DNA from: Paramecium tetraurelia
Lineage: Eukaryota
NCBI GenBank assembly: GCA_000165425.1
Contig: CT868074.1
Coordinates: forward strand, 1-64,000
DNA: 64,000 bases
Direction of reading: 5' to 3'
Shown here: piece after piece, positions 41,274-53,928 of the stretch
Numbering within the stretch: the stretch's first letter is position 1
How the letters are laid out: every line of letters starts with the position of its first letter
Notes under the pieces: generated by a model
The model's input: only the letters and a program-made list of their open reading frames with translations
Database searches by the model: none
What the model was told of the DNA's origin: nothing
Translations under genes and position numbers: made by a program

Positions 41274-44200
41274 TCAAATTATCAAAAATGCTGTTATCAA
41301 CATAGATATGATCATGGCTATCTTCGTTTCACCTGGATTTTAAGGTGTGGCTCCCTAAAAACAGGCTTCACAATGATTAGTATTGGAATTCCAAGTGTGT
41401 GTTTAGACTGATTTGATAAAACATGCTTTAGATTCTGAAATGGTCTTAGGGTCGCTGGTAGAGCAGTTTCCATTTTGTAACAAGCATATCGTATATTTAG
41501 TACCATCAAAGCTTGGCACTGGATTACAGTTTAAGCCATTTGAAAAAGTTTGGCAAGTTTAATCAACACATGTATTTTAATTCCAATAACAAGATGGATT
41601 GGTATTGCATGTATGCTCATCCTATTCTGCATCTGCACATGAAGAGAATGTTTTACAAGAACCAATTTGAGAGTTTTTTTCATTGGGTTTGAATGCACAA
41701 ATGGTTTATTAGTCACTTTCAATACCTCCTCCTTAACAAGCTGTAAGAGTATTGTAAGTACTGCACTTTGCTTTTGGAATACAATTGGTACCATTTGAAA
41801 CACATTATTTACCAGGTATGAATGTCAAGCAGTTTTGATTACTTTGTTCATGATAAATATCCTGACATTCTTTGACTCTACAAGATTACACTGTACTATT
41901 TCCTTTAATTGGGAGACCAAAAATGCATAGACCATCAGTTCCTTAGTAACAAGAAGATTATCTATAGGAGGAGCAAGTTGATTATTATATGCAAGTAGTT
42001 CCATTGGTAGTGCATGAATTATTTGCTTTGTAACATTCAAGATGGCTTTAATATTGATAATCTTCACAAGTTTTTACTTTGCAATTTGTATCTGTTTAAT
42101 CCCAAGTACAAGGGCCTTCCTTTGAAACATTCAAACATGCATTGGCTGTTTTATACATGGAACATTGTTAAACTACTTCAACGCATTGATACCCGTCAGA
42201 CACACACTCTTAATGATATAATCTACAAATATTATTATCACTAGATTTTAAATCTGAGCAGGCTTTGAAGGATTAGCATTTTTCATTCCATCCGCATTAT
42301 TTGTCTAATCCGTAGACACAGGAATCAAGTTTCTCATATTGAGCACAAAAAGTAATTGGTATACAATTTGATCCATTAGTTGTACAATATTTCGATATGT
42401 TTTGGCATTCTTAAAAGGTTTTGAGTTTGGCATCTTCACATTTAGAATAATTAATGCATGCATTCTAAACCCACAAACAAGGTCCCCTTTTGGAGTGAAT
42501 ACAGGAAATTTAGCTAATATATTCATCACATGAATCTCCAGAGATACAATTAATACCATTTGATAGACATCCATTCAATTATGACTCACACTCAGCAACA
42601 GTTTTACCTTAAAAATCAATACATTTGATGTCTCTACAACCATTTTCTTTGCGATCCCAAATGCATTTTCGTTCTCCATAAGCATAAAGACAGATCTAAA
42701 CTACTTTATAGGTAGAACACCAGCCAAAGGTAATACAGCCCATCCCACTGGTTGTGCATTTCGGATTTAATTAATGACATACACTATGAGATGAAATATC
42801 ATGAGGTAAATCCTCACAATTTTAAGAACGACATTGAGCAGGGTTATCAGTGAATGCACAAATTTCATTTTTTACTTTTGAATTGAAACAACTAGTTTAG
42901 CTAACCTCTTTGATTTAATCACAGCTTTCAAATTATTAATTACAAAAATGAGTCCATGAACATGATGCATTACCCTCACAAGCACTTTAAGTAATTATAT
43001 TATCGCATTGTTTAATAGATGTACATCCATACCCAGTAGTGTAACATGATGGATGATATTTCTAACATTCTATATCAGTTTTCAATGTGTTAGGTGCATC
43101 ATTACAGACCCGTGTTGTGCAACTACTAGTTTTGAAATCATCCATGACTGTTGCTTTACATGGTCCATCAATGGCAATAGCGTTGGCACAACTAATATGA
43201 TTACCCTAGAATTAAGTGCATTGCAATCCATATTTAACACACTTTGATCCATCAAATATACAAGTGATTGAATCAAATCTCTAATTACATGATTAGTTAT
43301 CTACACCATTAATATCACTGCATTCCAATTTCCTACAGGATGTATTCACTCCACTACTAAAGCAAAGATCCTTGCCATAATTTCCTTTAAACTTTAAGCA
43401 AGCATCGTAATTTCCTTGATATTGTGCACATGAAGCTGATTCTTCAATACATCCTGCTCCTTTTGTTCGGCATCCTTTTAGAAAATATGAACACTCTTCA
43501 TCTGAAGTTGCAGTAGTGTTATCTGAACAAATTTTCACTTTACATTTGCTAGTTGATTGATTTGTTACATACCCAGAACAATACACATATTCCTTATCTT
43601 TCAACTATTTGAATTATTCACATTATATTTTAGTACCTCTATATGAAGTACAAGGTTCAGTATTTGGAATACATCCAAGTCCTCTGGTTACACACCCATG
43701 CATGAACTCATTGCATTCAGTGTCTGATTAGGCACTTATATTATCATAACAAATTCGATTTTCACATCTTCCACTAGTTTAACTTGGTTCATTAGATATA
43801 CATTTGTCAACTCCATTCGGGTCCAAGTAATTTCCACATAATTGCTTAGTTGTTCTTATCTAATTACAATCCTGACTCATATCAATACATTTGGTTCCAT
43901 CAGTTTTACAAGTAGATAGGTACTATTGACAATAGAAATCTGTGTAATATTAAACATCACTGCAACTTCTATTTGAACATCCAGTCCCATTCCATTTACA
44001 ATACACTCCACTTACATTTTGTACTTTTTCACACCATAGCTACTATTGCTCAGGATTATCTCCTATTGGCTAATACTAGGAGCATTGTTGTTTTTTAAAG
44101 CATTTTTAGTTGTAATAATAACATCCCTTACTATCATTTAAACAATCATTTATTCCTAAAATATCTTCACATACTTATGGTTTGCATTTTCTGATTTGGG

Positions 44201-47200
44201 TTCCATCTTTACTACAACGAATATTGTTTAATGATTTAACTAATAAGCATTGTGCATCTTCTTGACCTTATTATGGGCCCTTTTGGTTATCTGCATTACC
44301 ATCATATCCTGAACAACTTTTTTACGTCACACAATTATTGCCCCAAAGGTAAGTGCAACTTTATAGGGATTCATCTTACAATTGATTGCAAATTTCCAAT
44401 TTATTTACCACATTTTCAACATTATATGATTCACAAGTATTTACCTTGACACAATAATCACCTCCCATATATGTGCATGGAAAATTTTAATTTCTAACTT
44501 AACTACAAAAGTATTTAGGGTTTTCCTTTGAAACAAGTATTTGACTACAAGTATTCTAGTAATTATAACAAGTTCCTAACAAATAATAGCATGTGGTTTG
44601 GTTTACCATAGTGTTACAATCTAATTGAGATTATGGATTCACTGCGTCTGAGCATTTGGAATCCCTACAATAATTTTCAGTTCCATTATATTTGCATTAA
44701 AATCCTTTGAGATTCTTCTTAACTTAACAAAAATAATATTTATCAGCAATTCCCTTGGGAACTATGTAATTAAAACAAGACTTTTGAATAGATACACATC
44801 TATTTTAAGTGTCACTGAATTAATCATAAGTGCATTTGACGCTTCTATTCTTATTTTTGAACAATTCACAATAACTAATCTTTTCACTGATGGATGACCC
44901 AATTAGCTCCTGGGAAAATGGAACCTTCGAAACATTACTACAGTCATCTTGAGTAGTTATGCTACCAACTGCTATACATTTTCCAAGTAAAAATATACAA
45001 CCTTTGATATGATTATCACAATCACCTTGAGAGTGAGGTGATGGAATGTGTTCACAAGTTCCTGCTTTGCAATTGGTTCCATTATCACTAATGCATTGAG
45101 TAGTTCTTGTTTTATCAGTATGAACTAAGCAAAATGTATCGACATTCGTAGGTTGTTTATCCCAAAATTCTGGAATGGGATCAACTTAAACACATAAATT
45201 ATATGAACTTTCTACACATCCAGTCTTGGCTTAATTGAGAACGCAGTAGTTTTAACCATCTGAAGTTGAAATTAACATACTGTTACAAAAGAGGGATTTC
45301 AAAGAGTCAGAAGTTAACTCAATTGTGAAGAGTACATCATTACATGAAGAAACCGCATTGTAGCATCTTTTATTGTAATAGCCACATTTGTAACCGTATG
45401 CCTCACAGTCTTTGTGAGAAGTTGGATTGTAAATATCTGAACATTAAAGGATATCTTAACAGGTTAATCCATCTGTATATGTACAGGGTATATAGGGACC
45501 ATCTGACTTATTTGATAAATCCACGACTTTCAAACTCCTACAGAAATCCAATTTTTGATTATAGGTTAAAAGAGTAGGGATTGTGTAACTAGAGCAAACA
45601 TAAGCAGTAGTATAGCAACGAGAGTTCTTAGTTTTTTAGCATTGGCCTCCTTTCCATCCCAAGGTGTCATTGCATTATTTTGTATCTGTCGCACTGATTA
45701 TAGTTTCACAGGAATCTTAATAACTGCATTGGGAAAAATAAACAGTGTTGTAAGCGCATTATATTCCTTTAGTGTTTTTGAGTGATACACAGAACTTCCA
45801 CTTCTCTTCAAAGGTTAGTAGATCAAATGGAACCATATAATAAAAGCACTCCGTCAGAGATGCCAAACAAGATGAACCAGCCAACATACAAAATCCACTT
45901 CCGGTGGTTTTCCCTTCCTGAATGAATGAGGAACACCCAGAAATTTACCCATTTACAATTTGTTAGCAAGTCCTTATGGAGCAGAATTATCCTATGTCCC
46001 AGCCACAATACAATCCCATTCGATCTTTAATATTAGCACAATACTAGAATCTTTTTTAATCTGTGTTAGCAGTATTGGGGATTTGATAGCCAGTACAATC
46101 ATTAGCCATTATACAAGGAGTGCCTTTTAGATAAAATCTACAGGTGGATTTATAGTTTGTACATTCCTCAGGAGTGTTAGGACTCGCTATGTCTGAACAT
46201 TGTCTTTATTAACAATTTACTTTTCTGGTACATTACGTCTAAGACCATTAATTATTTATTTGAATTCCCCCATAATAGAGTTAACAAGTTCCATCAGTCC
46301 CAGATTAGTCAGAACATGTTACAGTAGTTTAATCCACACATCCTGTATTCTTTAATAAGCAGTCTTAACGAAATAGATTACAATCTGAGTTCTTCTATGC
46401 TATAGATTTATGATAACATTCTCTCTTCACACACTATCCTTTGGTTGAAGTGCCGAAACAATATTTTTTTGAATTTTGCCCAACTATGGCTTGTTCGCAA
46501 AATAGATCATTTCCATAATAAGATTCACAAGTAGCCTAATTAGGATCTACACACCCTTCTTTGCCATCATAAAGACAACCATTTAAAAACTCTAAGCATT
46601 GCTAATCATTTTCCATTTATTCTGCCACAGAACAAGATTTTACCATACAAAAAGATAGCATATTTGCATGTTTTATATTGTAACATTGGATAGTAGTGAA
46701 ATTCTACTGTGATCCATTTAAGTACCCAAAGAATTGAATACACTTGCTTTAATCGCCTTACATTTGAGAACAACTAGTTCCATATTTAACACATCCTCTT
46801 CCATTAGTAACACACCCTGGAAAGTAATCGTTGCATTCTTGATTAGTTGTCAACTCAACATTATCTTAACATTGTCTAGTAATGCAAGGGGAGTTATCAT
46901 CTGCACTTTCAACATTAGTACAATACCCTAGATATCCAAAACAGGTCTGTTTATTCCCATAGAGTTTGGAACAGTCATATTTATTAATGCATGAGTTTTT
47001 CATATCACTAATACAAATTGACATTTCATTTTTACAATTTATATCGTCTTTATATTACGATCCTATTAATTCATCACAAGTTAACTCTCTACATCCATTT
47101 GCTGTCCAAGTGCATTTTACTGACTCTAGTATTCCATTTAATACTTTCTTAGCCTTTGTATATCTACAAGTAACCTCACTCTTAAACTTAGAACAATCAG

Positions 47201-48704
47201 AACCATCAATACAACCTGACTACCAAAAACACCCTTCAGTGCCTTCACAACTTGTTTAACTAATGGTCTTTTGACATTGTGTCTTCATTATACATCCATC
47301 CCCATTACTCACACAACTTTACTTCCACTCATTACACTTCTAATTAGCAGGAGCTTATTGACAATCTCTTGCTGTACAGAAATTTCCACTTACCCACATA
47401 CAATTCCCATCAGAACCTACAAACTTCAAGCATTTCTCAGAGTCTCCTTCATAGTTTGCACATGATTTCCTGTCTATCTTGTTAACACATCCAAATCCAG
47501 TTGTTACACAATTTATCTAATAGTCATTGCACTCCTCGTCTGTACTATAATTAATAGGTGCTTCATTGCAAACTCTGACCATGCATTGCTGGCGATTCTC
47601 CTTATCCTTCTCATCACCTTTGCACTTACCATCTCTACCCTTATAAGAAAGACATAATTTAATATTTCCTTTATAATTACTACAAAGGTCTAAATTCTAA
47701 ACGCATCCCACTCCATTAGTTATACATTTAGGCTAATATACTCTACACTGTTCATCAGTGCTATAATTTGGAGAGTCCTCACACCTTCTCGCTCTGCAAT
47801 TAGTTCCATCTTGAGTCCCTTCACATTGTCCATCTGATCCAATATATCTTTGGCAACTTGAATTATCTCCGAAATAGGCTGAACACAAAGGCTTAACAGT
47901 CCCAAATATGCATCCCTTTCCATTTGTAATGCAACCCTTCTAATATCTCGAACAATCAGAATCCGTATCATATTCAAATGGAGCGTTTAAGCATTGTTTA
48001 GCTGAACACATTTCGTCTTAGCCTTATTCACAATACCCATCAGAACCAATGTATTAATCACATTTCTTTTCATTACCTCTATAACTTGTACACGGAGGCA
48101 ACGGGGATTCCCAACAACCAATTCCTCTTGTTATGCATCCTTTTAGCCATTAATTGCATTGCTCATCTGTTATTAATTTCTCATCGCTGTCAGAACATTT
48201 ATAATCTCTACAAATATTTTCTATACTATCCCATTTACACATTCTTCTACCGAATAAACTTAGTGAAACATTACATATGTCTACAGGATAATCCTTGCAT
48301 TCTTTAAAGTTAATGCAAGAATTTCCGTCACTTATACATCGATATGAGACTGCTTAGCAATCATCTGTCCTTTAATACCTATATGCTGAACAACCAGCAA
48401 AGATTACACATTTCTTATCAATGTAAGCACAACCATCTGTTAAGTGACAGTTTGTTTCTTATTATGTTATCGATTCACAATAGGACTTATATGTAACATC
48501 AGGATTCTCCTAAGTCAGTTTCTTTTAGCACTTTCCTCCTATTGTGGTTGAATCCTTAATCCACTCACAATCTTATTGATCCTGTTTCCCAATCTCACAA
48601 TCGATCTACGATTTTAATTGGTTGCATTGATTGCATTTATCACTTCGATTGACTTAATAACATGAAGCTATCACTAATAAGCAAAAGAATGCACAAGATT
48701 TCAT
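41274..48704 (-). CDS. Paramecium surface (immobilization) antigen-family protein, ~2476 aa, predicted GPI-anchored
   Basis: Signal peptide MKSCAFFCLLVIASC; dozens of periodic Cys repeats (e.g. CSDNTTATSDEECSYFLKGCRTKGAGCIEESASCAQYQG); hydrophobic tail MIISMLITAFLII. 7431 nt is 2477 codons, consistent with no introns. Confidence 0.92.
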
Positions 48705-48884
48705 AAAATTTAATTTTTATTTTTTATTTAATAGAAGCAAAAATAGGCTCTATCAACCAAGTTTATCTGGATTTTCAAATTTAATATTAATTTTAAAACT
48801 TGTCTCAAATAATTTCATTATATACCCACTTTTAAGAGTCCCATTAAATTAACGTTAATAGAATATAAAAGTTCAAAATTAATA

Positions 48885-51102
48885 TCAATACTCATTTAGT
48901 AATTATCTCCAAATTAAGTTTATGTTTTGAAAATCCCGTAGACGTAGCTCAATAATTGCTTTCTTTAATAATTTCTACTCTCTTAAGGCTTGAACTTAAA
49001 TTTAATTTTTATATAAACCTAACTACGACTAAAATTCTTCTTAATATCCACTATAACTATTATTGACACCTTATTTCCAACACTCAATAACTTATTCGTA
49101 TTTATTTTATTTTTATAAAGCGTTTACTTAACTATTTAAATACTAATACTTTTTAATTGGTAAAACATAATGTTACCCTAATTATTTTCAATTCCTAAAT
49201 CCAAAACTTGCATTATCTCTTTCTCTTTCATTTCTCTGTTGCTTTCCAATAAGTATTTTTCTAAATCTCATACATATTTCATACGTATCTATTTGTAATA
49301 AATCTCTTGATTTGTGTTATTGTTTATTCCACTCATCCAACATTCAAGAACTTCATCTGATCTTCCTAATTAATCTAAAATCTTAGCTAATAAATGTAAT
49401 CAAATAACCCTACCTTTCTTTCTGTAAAAATAATCGTCATAAATATTATTTTAAATCCCTTAATCCCACAACAATATTAATTCATTTATTCTTCCCAATT
49501 TATTTAAAATAATTGCTAACAATATATTCTTGACTACCTTTTTATTTATAATAAAACTTCCTTTGAATATTATTTTAAATTCCTTCATCCCAACACTTTA
49601 AGGCAGACTCAAAGTCTTCTGCCTTTTCTAAAGTATATGCTTTAATAATCAACAAGAATTCATACCTTTTTGTTAATAAAAATATTAATTTTTCTTATTG
49701 TTCTCTATCCCTTTATTCCAGCAATCAACTATTTACTAATATTAGCCTTATATTTCTAACAGATTCACTAAACAAATAATTTCTCCTTTTACCTTCCTCT
49801 TAATAAAATAATTCTGAATTTGTATTAAATTTTATCCCTTAATCCCATAAATCAATAGCCTCTTGTATTCGATCTAGCTTTTGTAGTAAGTATGCTATTC
49901 AATTTTAGAATGTTTAAATGCTACCACATCTTTAATAAAATTTGTAATTATTTTTATTATTATTTATAGCTTGATACCAGCAATTGATCATCTCGTCAAA
50001 TTTTCCAACTCTTTCTAAGAAAGACACTAAAATAATTGAATCATTCTCATACATAATGATTCATAGTAATTGCTACAGCCTTTATTATTCAAGATGGCTT
50101 AATTCCAACAATCTATGATCTCGTCGGTTTTACCTTACTTCTCTAACGCCATAGCTAAAAATTTTATTCTAAAATACCTTTTTAAGTATAGAAGTTTTCA
50201 TTCTAAGTATTGGATTAGATTCCAATGTCCCAACATTCAATCACTTCCTTAAATCTCCCAAAACTCTCTAAAACCTAAGCTAAAAATACTTGTATTATTA
50301 TTTACTTTTTTGTACATAGAACGATAAATCTTTTATATTGTTCTTTATTCCAAACTCCCAACAATCTAATGATTCTTCAATTCTGTCCTATTTTGTTAGT
50401 GCATTGGCTATAAAAATAATAGAAAGTTGAACATTTTTAAATATAAAAGTCGATGTTTTTTTTATTATTTTCAATTCCTTGTTGCCAACATTCAATAACT
50501 TCTTAGAGTCTATTAAACTTATTTAATGCTTATGCTGAAATAATCATAATAAATATCTACCCTTTTTATCATAAAAATAGAAAGCATTCTTATTATAATT
50601 AATTGCTTAATCCCAGCATTATATTACTTAATCTTATCTTCCCAGTCTTTCTAGAATATTTGCTAATAAAATAACTCCAAATAATTTTGTACATTTCTTC
50701 TCATAATTAGATTTGTTCTTTCTGTTCATATGAATAGCGATATTCCAACAACTTATTGCCTCTTCGAATTTATCTAGTTTCTCTAATGCAAAGGCTAATA
50801 ATTAATATATATAGATACAACATTGTTACTCAATTAAATATAATATTATATTGGCATATTCATTTTTTTTACAGTAATAATAAACAGTTCCTTGATACCT
50901 CACAGAATTGGGTAATGCTTAATCTACAAATTTTAAGGTTGCTTACTAAATTATTTTTCGTTGTTTTTCAATGCTACTTCACAGTAAGATAACATTTCTT
51001 GGAACTTCATCTAGTCTTTTAAAGCCTAAACTGAATTATAAGTCTTGAATAATAACTTTCCTCTTCCATTTGAGCAACATTTAGTTGAGATTTAGAATTC
51101 AT
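48885..51102 (-). CDS. TPR-repeat protein, about one 34-aa repeat per exon
   Basis: Repeats of the form A..LEK..R.EEAI.CWD.GI..N.....FY..K. 16 introns of 22-30 nt, with 12 consecutive exons of exactly 102 nt. Confidence 0.88.
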
Positions 51103-51259: not shown

Positions 51260-52383
51260 TCAATATTTGATGTCCTTAATTGATTTAATTTATTTAGTAT
51301 TGTATTTTCCTACTAGATTCGAAACAAGAATAATAGTTTTTTCACTTCCATTATTGTTGTGTTCTAAAAGTATTTCTTCAAAATTATCACAATTTGTTAT
51401 TTTTTAAATCTCTGAATCTTCTAGATAACTTTGAGTAGGAGTGCAAAGCGACTACTGTTAATCTAATTTGAATTAAATAATTGAATTATTGGATGCTTAG
51501 ATCATGTGCTTAAATACTTCTCTAATGTATGAATAATCTGGTATTTGATTATAGTGTAATTAATTTATGTAGGACATAAAAACGGAGAAATGATTAAAGG
51601 ATTTGCATTGCAAAATGAGGGTTTTAAAAAAGGTTAACTTTGATTGTTTAATGAGTTCAAAATCCTAAACAGAAAAAGTGTAATATTATTAATGAGACCA
51701 AGGCAAAGTCACTATATTATAAAACAAATAAATTACAGTCTTTTAAATAAAATAATACATATAATAAACTTTCTAGATCGTCTTTATACCCAAGAGGTGA
51801 ACCATCATGGGAAGATCTGCTTGCGAAGTTTAACGATCCGATAAACACATCTTACAAACCTTCTGAGTTCTCTTCGTATAATTGCGATAAACCAAAATCG
51901 ATCAATTGGATGAATCCATCTTTTTCGATATCGGATTCCTTCTCAAATGCTTAAGATATCATTATATTTTCTGGTTTTATGTCAAGATGTAGAATGTTTT
52001 TTTTGTGTACTTGCTCCAATATTTCTATAACTCTTAACCCTATTCTCATAATGGCGCTTTAAGAAACTTTTCTACCCTTTACTAACTCTAACAAATTGCT
52101 ATGTAATAGTGGAAGAACAAAATAACACCTTAATTTGATTATTAACCATAAATTACTTATTTTCTTATGCTACTCCAATTTATTTTATTTTCGGAATTCC
52201 TTCAATTCCTTTTAATTTCTAAAGGACTTTGATTTCGTTCTCTAATTGGCCTAATTGAGGATTTTTTTCTATTTTTATGGCAAATGATTTAGAGCTCGAT
52301 TTTTCCTTGGCCAAATATACCTGATGTTAGGATCCGCATCCAATTTTCGATAGGACGGTGTAGTCTGGGAATTGTATCTACAT
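51260..52383 (-). CDS. Casein kinase 1-like Ser/Thr protein kinase, 356 aa
   Basis: KIGCGSQHQVY, FAIKIE, HLDIKPEN, LIDFGLS, FIGSLNFAS..YKDDLESLLY..LPW..PDYSYIR. Introns of 28 and 25 nt. Confidence 0.93.
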
Positions 52384-52878
52384 AAATATACCAAAATTTA
52401 TAATGGAAAGTTTTAGGAAATAATAATTGGCTATTAAAAAGTGAAATAAAAAGGGGGTGGAATATGTAGTTTTATTTATTTTATTATTAATCTAATACTT
52501 AATGCATTATTAAAAACATCCAGTGAGTATGGTTACCTATAAATTATAGGTCTTGTAATTTTTCTAATCTCCTTAAATTATTTTGCTTACTTTTTATTTT
52601 AAGAATATAATATTAAACTTAGTAATGTAAACCAATATAAAAGTACACAATTATAAAAAATGAAAAATTAGAAAAATTCTAAATTAAATTAGACCATCGT
52701 TATTTAGAACTCTTCGCTTTATTTGCAAAGTAAACATTATATAAATAGACATTTTAATTTTCATTTTTTAGTTAAAATAATAATAATTATTAATTCAAAA
52801 CCATATATTTATCTCAAAAATGAGTTAATTTTTTGAGTATTAAACGTTATATATATTTTAAATTAATTCGATTTTATA

Positions 52879-53928
52879 ATGAAATAGAAAGGAAAAAAAG
52901 GGAGAGAGGACTTGTTGGAGTAACTAAAATCTAATCTAAACATTATGGGTCATAAGATGAGTATTTTAATATAAGGTGCAGACGGATAAATATATTTGAA
53001 GGAACATTTATCATCCAAAGGACATCAACCTTATGATGATCAAACCACAATTCATATCGCTTCTGGATGCAAATGGATTGCCATGACTGTAATAATGAAG
53101 CTAGTTGAATTAGGATTATTAAGTCTTGATACTAAGGTGATCGATATATACCCAGAATTTAAGAGTTCAAATCCTAATTTATTGTTAAAGCATTTGATGA
53201 CTCACACTTCAGGGTATGTTTTAGCAGATGAATGGATATTTGATTTGGATATCTCTTTATAGGAATCTGTTATTGGAATAGCAAAAGGAGGAAAGTACCC
53301 AGCGAGTAAGGTTAGTTTTCAGGGAGGTACTAAAGTTGGCTATAGTGATATTGGAATGTAAATAGCAGGGGGAATGGCAGAAAAAGTGACAGGAAAATCA
53401 TTCCATCAATTATTTAATGAGTTCTTAGCTTAACCTCTAGGAATGTAGAATGCTCAGTTTACAGCTTTTGATGGAGAGAAAGGTTAAAATATTGCAATTG
53501 CTGATGGTTTTTTAGTGAGGATGATTGACTATGGTAATTTTCTACGAATGCTTCTCAATCATGGTTCTTTTAATGGCATACAAATTCTAAAGGCATCAAC
53601 TGTTGAATAAATGCTCTAAGATTACACTGATGACTTGCCTGTATCAGTAAAGGTCATGAAAGAAGTAGTAGGAGAGGTATCGGATTCTTATGGTTTTGGA
53701 ATTGGCTCTTGGGTTTATGATACCAATGATAAGGACGAACCAGTGATCTTTTCGAGTTCTGGCGTGCATGGATTTGAAAATTGGATTGATATTGAGAATG
53801 GATATTTGTGTATATTCTTCCTAAGAGCAGATGTTGAAAAAGAACCATAAATTTCAGATCTTAGTGAATCCATGAGACCTGAAATTTTGGAATTCTACTT
53901 GAAAGAGAGCAAATAAAAAAATAATTGA
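52879..53928 (+). CDS. Beta-lactamase-family (AmpC/CubicO-like) serine hydrolase, 349 aa, intronless
   Basis: SxxK = ASGCK; LLLKHLMTHTSG; YSD triad (GYSDIGMQIAG); PLGM; YGFGIG.W; SSSG in the H/KTG position. Confidence 0.92.

Follow-up and report, generated by a model that had tools for sequence, protein, structure and literature searches.

One-repeat-per-exon TPR-like genes in Paramecium tetraurelia: 102-nucleotide exons, phase-1 introns and a predicted IES footprint

Analysis of a 64,000-nucleotide stretch of Paramecium tetraurelia DNA (contig CT868074.1, positions 1 to 64,000, hereafter the window) revealed on the minus strand, between positions 48885 and 51102, a transcribed and spliced gene for a TPR-like protein of about 590 residues, which probably originated by tandem copying of an exon cassette long ago and belongs to a family that likely varies its binding groove for changing partners. 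Twelve consecutive exons are each exactly 102 nt long and bounded by AG and GT, and the 11 GT..AG introns of 22-30 nt between them are all in phase 1 and leave the frame open (NCBI table 6), as had been claimed in a preliminary description of this DNA. The longest chain of AG-102-GT units in the 64-kb window has 13 members; the maximum is 3 for 30 other exon lengths between 90 and 120 nt in the same window, and also 3 in 30 block shuffles. Flanking exons of 105 and 111 nt had been proposed as well. The downstream one is indeed 111 nt long, but the upstream one measures 102 nt in the RNA contigs, so that the run comprises 13 exons of 102 nt, the first of them a degenerate repeat. The complete model (Table 1) encodes 594 aa from the ATG at 51102 or 583 aa from the ATG at 51069; the start codon and the 5' intron are predicted, and one RNA contig ends exactly at 51030.

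Table 1. Coordinates of the TPR-like gene and of its predicted IES junctions (positions in the window)
Feature	Position	Strand	Remarks
Whole CDS span	48885..51102	-	18 exons, 17 introns, all phase 1
5' intron	51031-51056	-	predicted, as is the start codon
84-nt exon, shortened N-terminal cap repeat	50947..51030	-	RNA contigs and gene model
102-nt exon, degenerate repeat	50822..50923	-	RNA contigs and gene model
27-nt intron after degenerate-repeat exon	50795-50821	-	
102-nt TPR exon 1	50693..50794	-	
102-nt TPR exon 2	50561..50662	-	
102-nt TPR exon 3	50433..50534	-	
102-nt TPR exon 4	50306..50407	-	
102-nt TPR exon 5	50178..50279	-	
102-nt TPR exon 6	50053..50154	-	
102-nt TPR exon 7	49925..50026	-	
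30-nt intron with in-frame TGA	49895..49924	-	retained in contigs of 2 of 4 runs (X4, X6)
102-nt TPR exon 8	49793..49894	-	
102-nt TPR exon 9	49666..49767	-	
102-nt TPR exon 10	49538..49639	-	
102-nt TPR exon 11	49414..49515	-	
27-nt intron with in-frame TGA	49387..49413	-	retained in contigs of 3 of 4 runs (X4, X7, X13)
102-nt TPR exon 12	49285..49386	-	
111-nt diverged repeat exon	49150..49260	-	
108-nt diverged repeat exon	49019..49126	-	
Last exon	48849..48994	-	contains the stop; poly(A) site 48849
Stop codon TGA	48887-48885	-	
Span of the 17 TA dinucleotides	48984..51021	-	
Predicted IES junctions, upstream half	51021, 50914, 50785, 50653, 50525, 50398, 50270, 50145, 50017	-	TA footprint
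Predicted IES junctions, downstream half	49885, 49758, 49630, 49506, 49377, 49251, 49117, 48985	-	TA footprint

The proposed splice junctions were borne out by RNA: contigs from four of four runs, belonging to four studies, align perfectly (0 mismatches), with the predicted introns missing, and one of them ends in a poly(A) tail at the site given in Table 1. Nine intron gaps were listed directly, the others being obtained from gap totals and bin depths that the gene model reproduces; the RNA nature of the contigs was judged from their alignments, as no run was recorded as RNA. Three RNA runs of about 1.1-1.3 Gb each contributed 49, 32 and 16 raw reads on the gene, every first mate mapping to the plus strand, which is what most stranded libraries would give for a minus-strand transcript; at this thin coverage, no splice joint reached the reporting threshold in these reads. 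In run X22, three reads connect position 49150 with 12 nt of the next exon, after which come 16 letters that do not occur in it.

The possibility that alternative splicing by exon skipping creates isoforms with different repeat sets had also been raised, and the frame would survive such events, all exons being symmetric (phase 1-1). However, the contigs of all four runs contain the 12 exons in order, with intron retention as the sole variation, and no skipping joint was found in the four contig sets or the 97 raw reads, a low depth at which contigs also drop rare forms. Tiny introns are, moreover, generally recognized by intron definition, which makes skipping rare, and we regard this explanation as very improbable. 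The two introns found retained (Table 1) have lengths divisible by three in addition to their in-frame TGA, and a third intron with these same properties is spliced in four of four runs. Introns of 3n length are under-represented in Paramecium generally; they are likewise under-represented across the arrays fetched in this work, with 99 of 420 introns, 13 of the 99 containing an in-frame stop.

The gene combines a 34-residue period with a Pfam TPR match. A 120-aa read-through piece, which includes intron-coded residues, scored 33.3 bits against TPR_2 (cut-off 27) and 27.8 bits against TPR_1; a relative from P. sonneborni reached 62.4 bits against TPR_1, and a single 33-aa exon gave no Pfam match. 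The canonical TPR consensus is W4-L7-G8-Y11-G15-Y17-A20-Y24-A27-P32. The repeats of this gene represent a Trp-type variant in which the hydrophobic pattern is kept, with Y4, mostly Ala or Ser at position 8, L11, W24 and G27, and P32 mostly missing; Y4, L11, W24, I28 and N31 are invariant within the gene. From the residues singled out in the preliminary description, a "fixed CW pair" and an intron "after FYxxK", the Trp is present in 12 of 12 repeats but the Cys in only 10, and F/Y-Y is usual but the Lys closes only 8 of 12. Similarly, each exon corresponds to one repeat period of 34 aa, as proposed, but not to one structural TPR, since the intron splits the codon of position 8 (Pfam numbering) in helix A; each exon extends from position 8 of one repeat to the same position of the following one and is thus a permuted repeat. 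In a wider TPR set, the split codon specifies Gly at 250 canonical junctions and Ala at 93.

Family membership leads us to expect the helix-turn-helix superhelical fold for the product. A single-sequence structure model of the relative P0002 was uninformative (pLDDT 34), and the best sequence matches in the PDB were designed consensus TPRs, over short stretches only. The 594-aa model is made of repeats end to end: no domain beyond TPR-like repeats was detected in the pieces scanned, and an NB-ARC/STAND P-loop switch domain is absent from the 594-aa model and the Pfam-scanned pieces. The product is likely a soluble repeat superhelix without an effector domain.

Since an excised IES leaves behind one TA, the exons were tested for a TA held at a fixed place. 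Exon nucleotides 10-11, in the codon of Leu-11, are TA in 17 of the 17 exons of this gene that follow an intron, and an invariant TA in otherwise saturated exons would constitute a germline IES footprint readable from somatic DNA. Across the Trp family, TTA or CTA encodes Leu-11 in 72 of 72 cases, versus 102 of 181 for the other Leu codons (p=5e-15); the corresponding figures for young arrays are 236 of 236 versus 269 of 504, and in intronless TPRs 8 of 20 Leu-11 codons are of this type. Seven arrays of at least five exons (L017, L021, L029, L038, L044, L056 and L060) mostly lack Leu-11 and largely lack the held TA, demonstrating that the phase-1 intron exists both with and without the TA footprint. 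This lineage, of which L017 is a young 23-unit array, is probably free of the Leu-11 IES, and it should be useful for dating the intron relative to the IES.

Published IES data allow a direct comparison. A total of 1135 IESs has been reported in P. tetraurelia TPR genes, one figure placing IESs at the 5' end of TPR exons, and Table S2 of the same study contains, for several TPR genes, mostly 26-30-bp IESs every ~125-131 nt, as judged from 72 of the 270 matching rows (PMC6771405). The IESs of PTET.51.1.G1150169 are spaced exactly as are the exons of the Trp-type array L002, and 8 of 9 published IES points coincided with the Leu-11 TA once this array had been anchored at the start codon given in the publication, two units being without a listed IES (gaps of 265 and 247 nt). 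For L016, matched to G1170001, 5 of 5 IES points among those listed fell on the Leu-11 TA; four other published IES series had no full match to any fetched array. We predict IESs at the 17 TA sites of the gene in the window, and the germline unit is likely composed of exon, intron and IES.

Two single-exon searches and an architecture pattern identified at least seven Trp-type loci in Paramecium tetraurelia, the pattern giving 23 matches on 5 contigs and its reversed control 0. Five of these loci match deposited P. tetraurelia proteins exactly over the exons, and the older deposited models of these five proteins retain introns or shift frame; such mis-splicing of the TPR genes may be why the pattern was missed. 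A profile search yielded five Trp-type paralogs together with a P. sonneborni protein showing no clear orthology to any of them. Read-through and alignment queries found no ortholog of the present gene, a result that is no evidence of absence given the insensitivity of these queries; the alignment query returned only P0057 and one P. pentaurelia protein and missed proteins in its own alignment. No ohnologous block is evident around the gene. At L006:3330-3810 (+), four non-Trp 102-nt TPR exons lie directly upstream of a Trp-type array, either as part of a fused gene or as a neighbor.

The exon architecture extends to the wider TPR family. The best 150 of 1354 candidates from a Pfam TPR_1 search were scored, many of them recurring at a 127-133-nt period, and the 66 stretches fetched cover 144 of the 150 scored hits, so that counts of loci are not a census. 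Adjacent TPR junctions in 67 stretches numbered 493, of which 420 carry a GT-AG phase-1 intron in the position-8 codon, a proportion that is likewise no census as the scoring matrix was trained on intron-bearing arrays; 50 are intronless, most of them belonging to a small number of TPR genes whose repeats are contiguous, and the remaining 23 are of other kinds, some with GC-AG. GC-AG introns at the same TPR position were noted in arrays L009, L033, L044 and L060. The resulting array set comprises 503 exons in 50 arrays, with a fixed exon length equal to the repeat period and introns of the same phase. An initial count, with AG and GT on either side of 106 of 144 TPR hits, was discarded, since K7-G8 codons produce AG/GT even where there is no intron; three chains were rejected as non-TPR, one overlapping chain was dropped, and one of the rejected chains is a WD40 array in which the supposed 24-nt introns are coding sequence. 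Young repeats (P0003, P0004 and other profile hits) are 55-72% identical to near-consensus archaeal or bacterial TPR arrays, one of them from Methanomethylovorans, which may reflect either convergence on the consensus or transfer.

Duplication of exon cassettes, put forward for this gene in the preliminary description, is seen at the level of the family, where young arrays copy the exon together with its intron. The nearest exon is found in the same gene for 17 of 17 exons in C483, 23 of 23 in C115, 16 of 17 in C678, 12 of 13 in C60 and 16 of 20 in C447, and the C60 array shows block duplications with two identical units. Over the array set, the more similar the exons, the more similar their introns, whose identity goes from about 0.55 up to 0.94, indicating that exon and intron were copied together. 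An origin of the shared intron position by repeated independent gains, at the AG/G proto-splice site of K7-G8 codons, is hardly credible as the general explanation: some old introns could be parallel gains, as intronless junctions often read AG/G there and the similarity among introns of Trp-type genes (0.51-0.59) does not exceed background, but near-identical introns track exon identity in young arrays, every junction of the present gene has an intron, the TA at +10 is common to the units too, and conserved TPR genes with the same site are mostly without an intron. For young arrays, independent gains are largely refuted.

The arrays are concentrated toward contig ends, with 17 of the 28 on contigs >100 kb lying within 30 kb of an end versus 5.1 expected. 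Twelve more are located on contigs under 45 kb; small P. tetraurelia scaffolds can be partly redundant (PMC3464196), and no identical exons were found between contigs (maximum identity 0.96). Recombination in P. tetraurelia has been put at 420 cM/Mb (PMC13085455).

Older arrays, by comparison, appear stable, as evidenced by the C26/C11 pair, which is collinear over 19 units (p=0.0005), and by a P. pentaurelia protein that is collinear with the Trp-type array L004 and 55-73% identical to it in 4 of 8 exons. The gene in the window looks like an old member of the family. Its units, 55% identical on average and 67% at most, carry no trace of recent copying, and its exon tree is without resolution (3 of 68 branches starred). 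Hence, recent exon duplication or exchange was found for young arrays and not for this gene, and the suggested shuffling of its exons is not shown; at the Trp-type paralog L004, the only cross-species ortholog found is the collinear P. pentaurelia protein. Gene labels showed no overall clustering in the exon tree, values as low being reached in 89 of 200 shuffles, exons were slightly more similar within a gene (0.527) than between genes (0.515; p=0.0002), and none of 21 pairs of Trp-type genes was collinear at p<0.05, a comparison of low power in which a short 95%-identical pair failed too.

TPR positions 2, 5, 9, 12, 13, 33 and 34 make up the concave ligand face (PMC1261162). In 154 close exon pairs from 15 young arrays, codon positions 1+2 differed at a rate of 0.34 at TPR position 9, 0.32 at position 12, 0.30 at position 2 and 0.26 at position 5, compared with 0.207 in introns and 0.164 at fourfold sites of the same pairs. 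Core TPR positions differed at near 0.01-0.06, pN/pS was 0.07-0.16 at TPR positions 11, 20, 21, 28 and 7, and positions 13 and 33 showed no excess over introns. This counting test is suggestive of a faster change at groove positions 2, 5, 9 and 12 than in introns of young arrays, although the pairs are non-independent and gene conversion could inflate the excess; the variability of groove positions in all TPRs counts against a special selection here. The earlier idea that the exons diversify a binding surface finds suggestive support in young arrays, the units of the present gene being too diverged for such a test.

Alternatively, the arrays might reflect recombinational turnover with no adaptive role, whereby symmetric units duplicate harmlessly, the IES rides along, and the products are low-expressed generic scaffolds under relaxed selection. 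Such an explanation would account for the low read counts of this gene, the frequent retention of two stop-containing introns, the lack of an effector domain in the pieces scanned and the frequent location of arrays at the ends of contigs or on tiny ones. It is nonetheless rather unlikely, considering that structural positions are strongly conserved while positions 2, 9 and 12 exceed both intron and fourfold rates, that the frame is open across 18 exons of the gene and that a Trp-type gene has been kept in P. pentaurelia.

We favor adaptive variation of the groove on a germline cassette, consisting of a 102-nt exon, a phase-1 intron and a short IES at exon base 10 (predicted for this gene), that would have been copied in tandem long ago. 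Copying may proceed by unequal crossing-over between units, favored near chromosome ends. New arrays would arise mostly near chromosome ends, vary in unit number and order, and change their groove residues, and some, such as the present gene, would persist with a fixed unit order. Since helix A is interrupted by the intron at position 8, an exchange of units would pair groove residues 33-6 of one exon with residues 9-13 of another. The family likely varies its binding groove in the germline to recognize changing partners. By analogy with the Ectocarpus and Tetrahymena systems, the ligands could be foreign proteins, for example of bacterial symbionts or viruses, a suggestion that we offer tentatively and would not put at even chances. 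The young arrays are candidate recognition proteins of a model ciliate, and the weight of the finding rests more on the family and the IES layer than on this old gene.

Genes with one repeat per exon are already known from Tetrahymena LRR and Ectocarpus TPR genes, as are IES-rich TPR genes in Paramecium. The Tetrahymena LRR genes, mentioned in the preliminary description as having fixed one-repeat exons, contain arrays of 90-bp exons and resemble the Paramecium arrays in belonging to a ciliate, in having one repeat period per fixed-length symmetric exon, in comprising old and young cohorts with the young ones near chromosome ends, and in copying exon and intron as a unit (PMC6564038). They differ in the repeat (LRR rather than TPR), in intron phase (2 rather than 1) and in number, with nearly 50,000 exons in ten species (PMC6564038) versus about 500 counted here. 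In addition, the Tetrahymena IESs lie in introns or flanks and involve the REP retrotransposon (PMC6564038), whereas the Paramecium IESs are short and lie in the exon, at a fixed codon. Paramecium LRR genes were reported to be without a 90-bp peak, and the available text of that study gives no exon structure for Paramecium TPR genes (Xiong et al. 2019, PMC6564038). The TPR arrays may thus be regarded as the Paramecium counterpart of the Tetrahymena LRR expansion, with another repeat and another intron phase.

The NB-ARC-TPR genes of Ectocarpus resemble the Paramecium arrays in having a single TPR in each exon and in showing signs both of turnover of exons and of diversifying selection, and they have been proposed to be pathogen receptors that undergo somatic recombination (Zambounis et al. 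2012, PMC3341825). In contrast to the Paramecium genes, however, their functional exons measure 126 nt, those of 102 nt being called truncated; their TPRs are joined to an NB-ARC switch, none of which was found in the Paramecium gene; and their introns hold spare inactivated exons, for which the Paramecium introns are too short (PMC3341825).

The IES-rich TPR genes described in P. tetraurelia, with up to 10 IESs per kb, belong to the same family (Vitali et al. 2019, PMC6771405), and multi-copy IESs have been attributed to expansion of the TPR repeat (PMC6771405; Arnaiz et al. 2012, PMC3464196). The available parts of these reports are silent on the 102-nt length and the phase, on the IES codon and the co-duplication of introns, and on the age classes and the selection at groove positions (PMC6771405, PMC3464196). 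A search of openly available text gave no description of 102-nt phase-1 Paramecium arrays or of an IES located in the Leu-11 codon. What is new is the TA held at exon nucleotides 10-11, on which all but one of the published L002 IES points fall. A single IES insertion, likely copied along with exon and intron, would explain why TPR genes are the most IES-dense in the species.

The in-register geometry of the IESs would also permit somatic diversification, in which PiggyMac would excise everything from the left boundary of an IES to the right boundary of another further along, with in-frame loss of whole exon-intron units, so that repeat number varies and each new macronucleus obtains its own binding-surface set. 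A 130-bp 'IES' of one unit length (IESPGM.PTET51.1.100.774) shows a retention of 0.34-0.63 in all samples, and genes whose IESs are incompletely excised at 18 and 32 C include a disproportionate number of TPR genes (PMC6771405). Conversely, the 130-bp element lies out of register and could stem from a collapsed assembly; no unit-exact deletion in an identifiable TPR gene was recognized in two of the about five parts of the published deletion table, where one deletion measures 122 bp and occurs at 2-3%; and the RNA of the present gene contains no unit-sized joint in the four contig sets or the 97 raw reads. We consider somatic loss of units improbable, and germline variation of the groove remains our preferred reading. 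If somatic loss did occur, it would represent somatic diversification in a single-celled eukaryote via programmed DNA elimination, and the geometry makes receptor diversification of this kind testable in a unicell with existing kinds of sequence data.

Lastly, the gene has several neighbors in the window. A cysteine-rich open frame of about 2,476 aa (41274-48704, minus strand), which needs no introns, starts about 145 nt after the poly(A) site of the TPR gene and contains Paramecium surface antigen domains, its first 901 aa scoring 137 bits against PF01508. At 52837-53928 on the plus strand, an uninterrupted frame encodes a serine hydrolase of the beta-lactamase family (PF00144, 88.5 bits) that is possibly of bacterial origin. 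Directly upstream of the TPR gene, at 51660-52384 on the minus strand, lies a protein kinase gene (PF00069), which looks similar to casein kinase 1 and whose best match in its own genome, at 72%, is located on C27.
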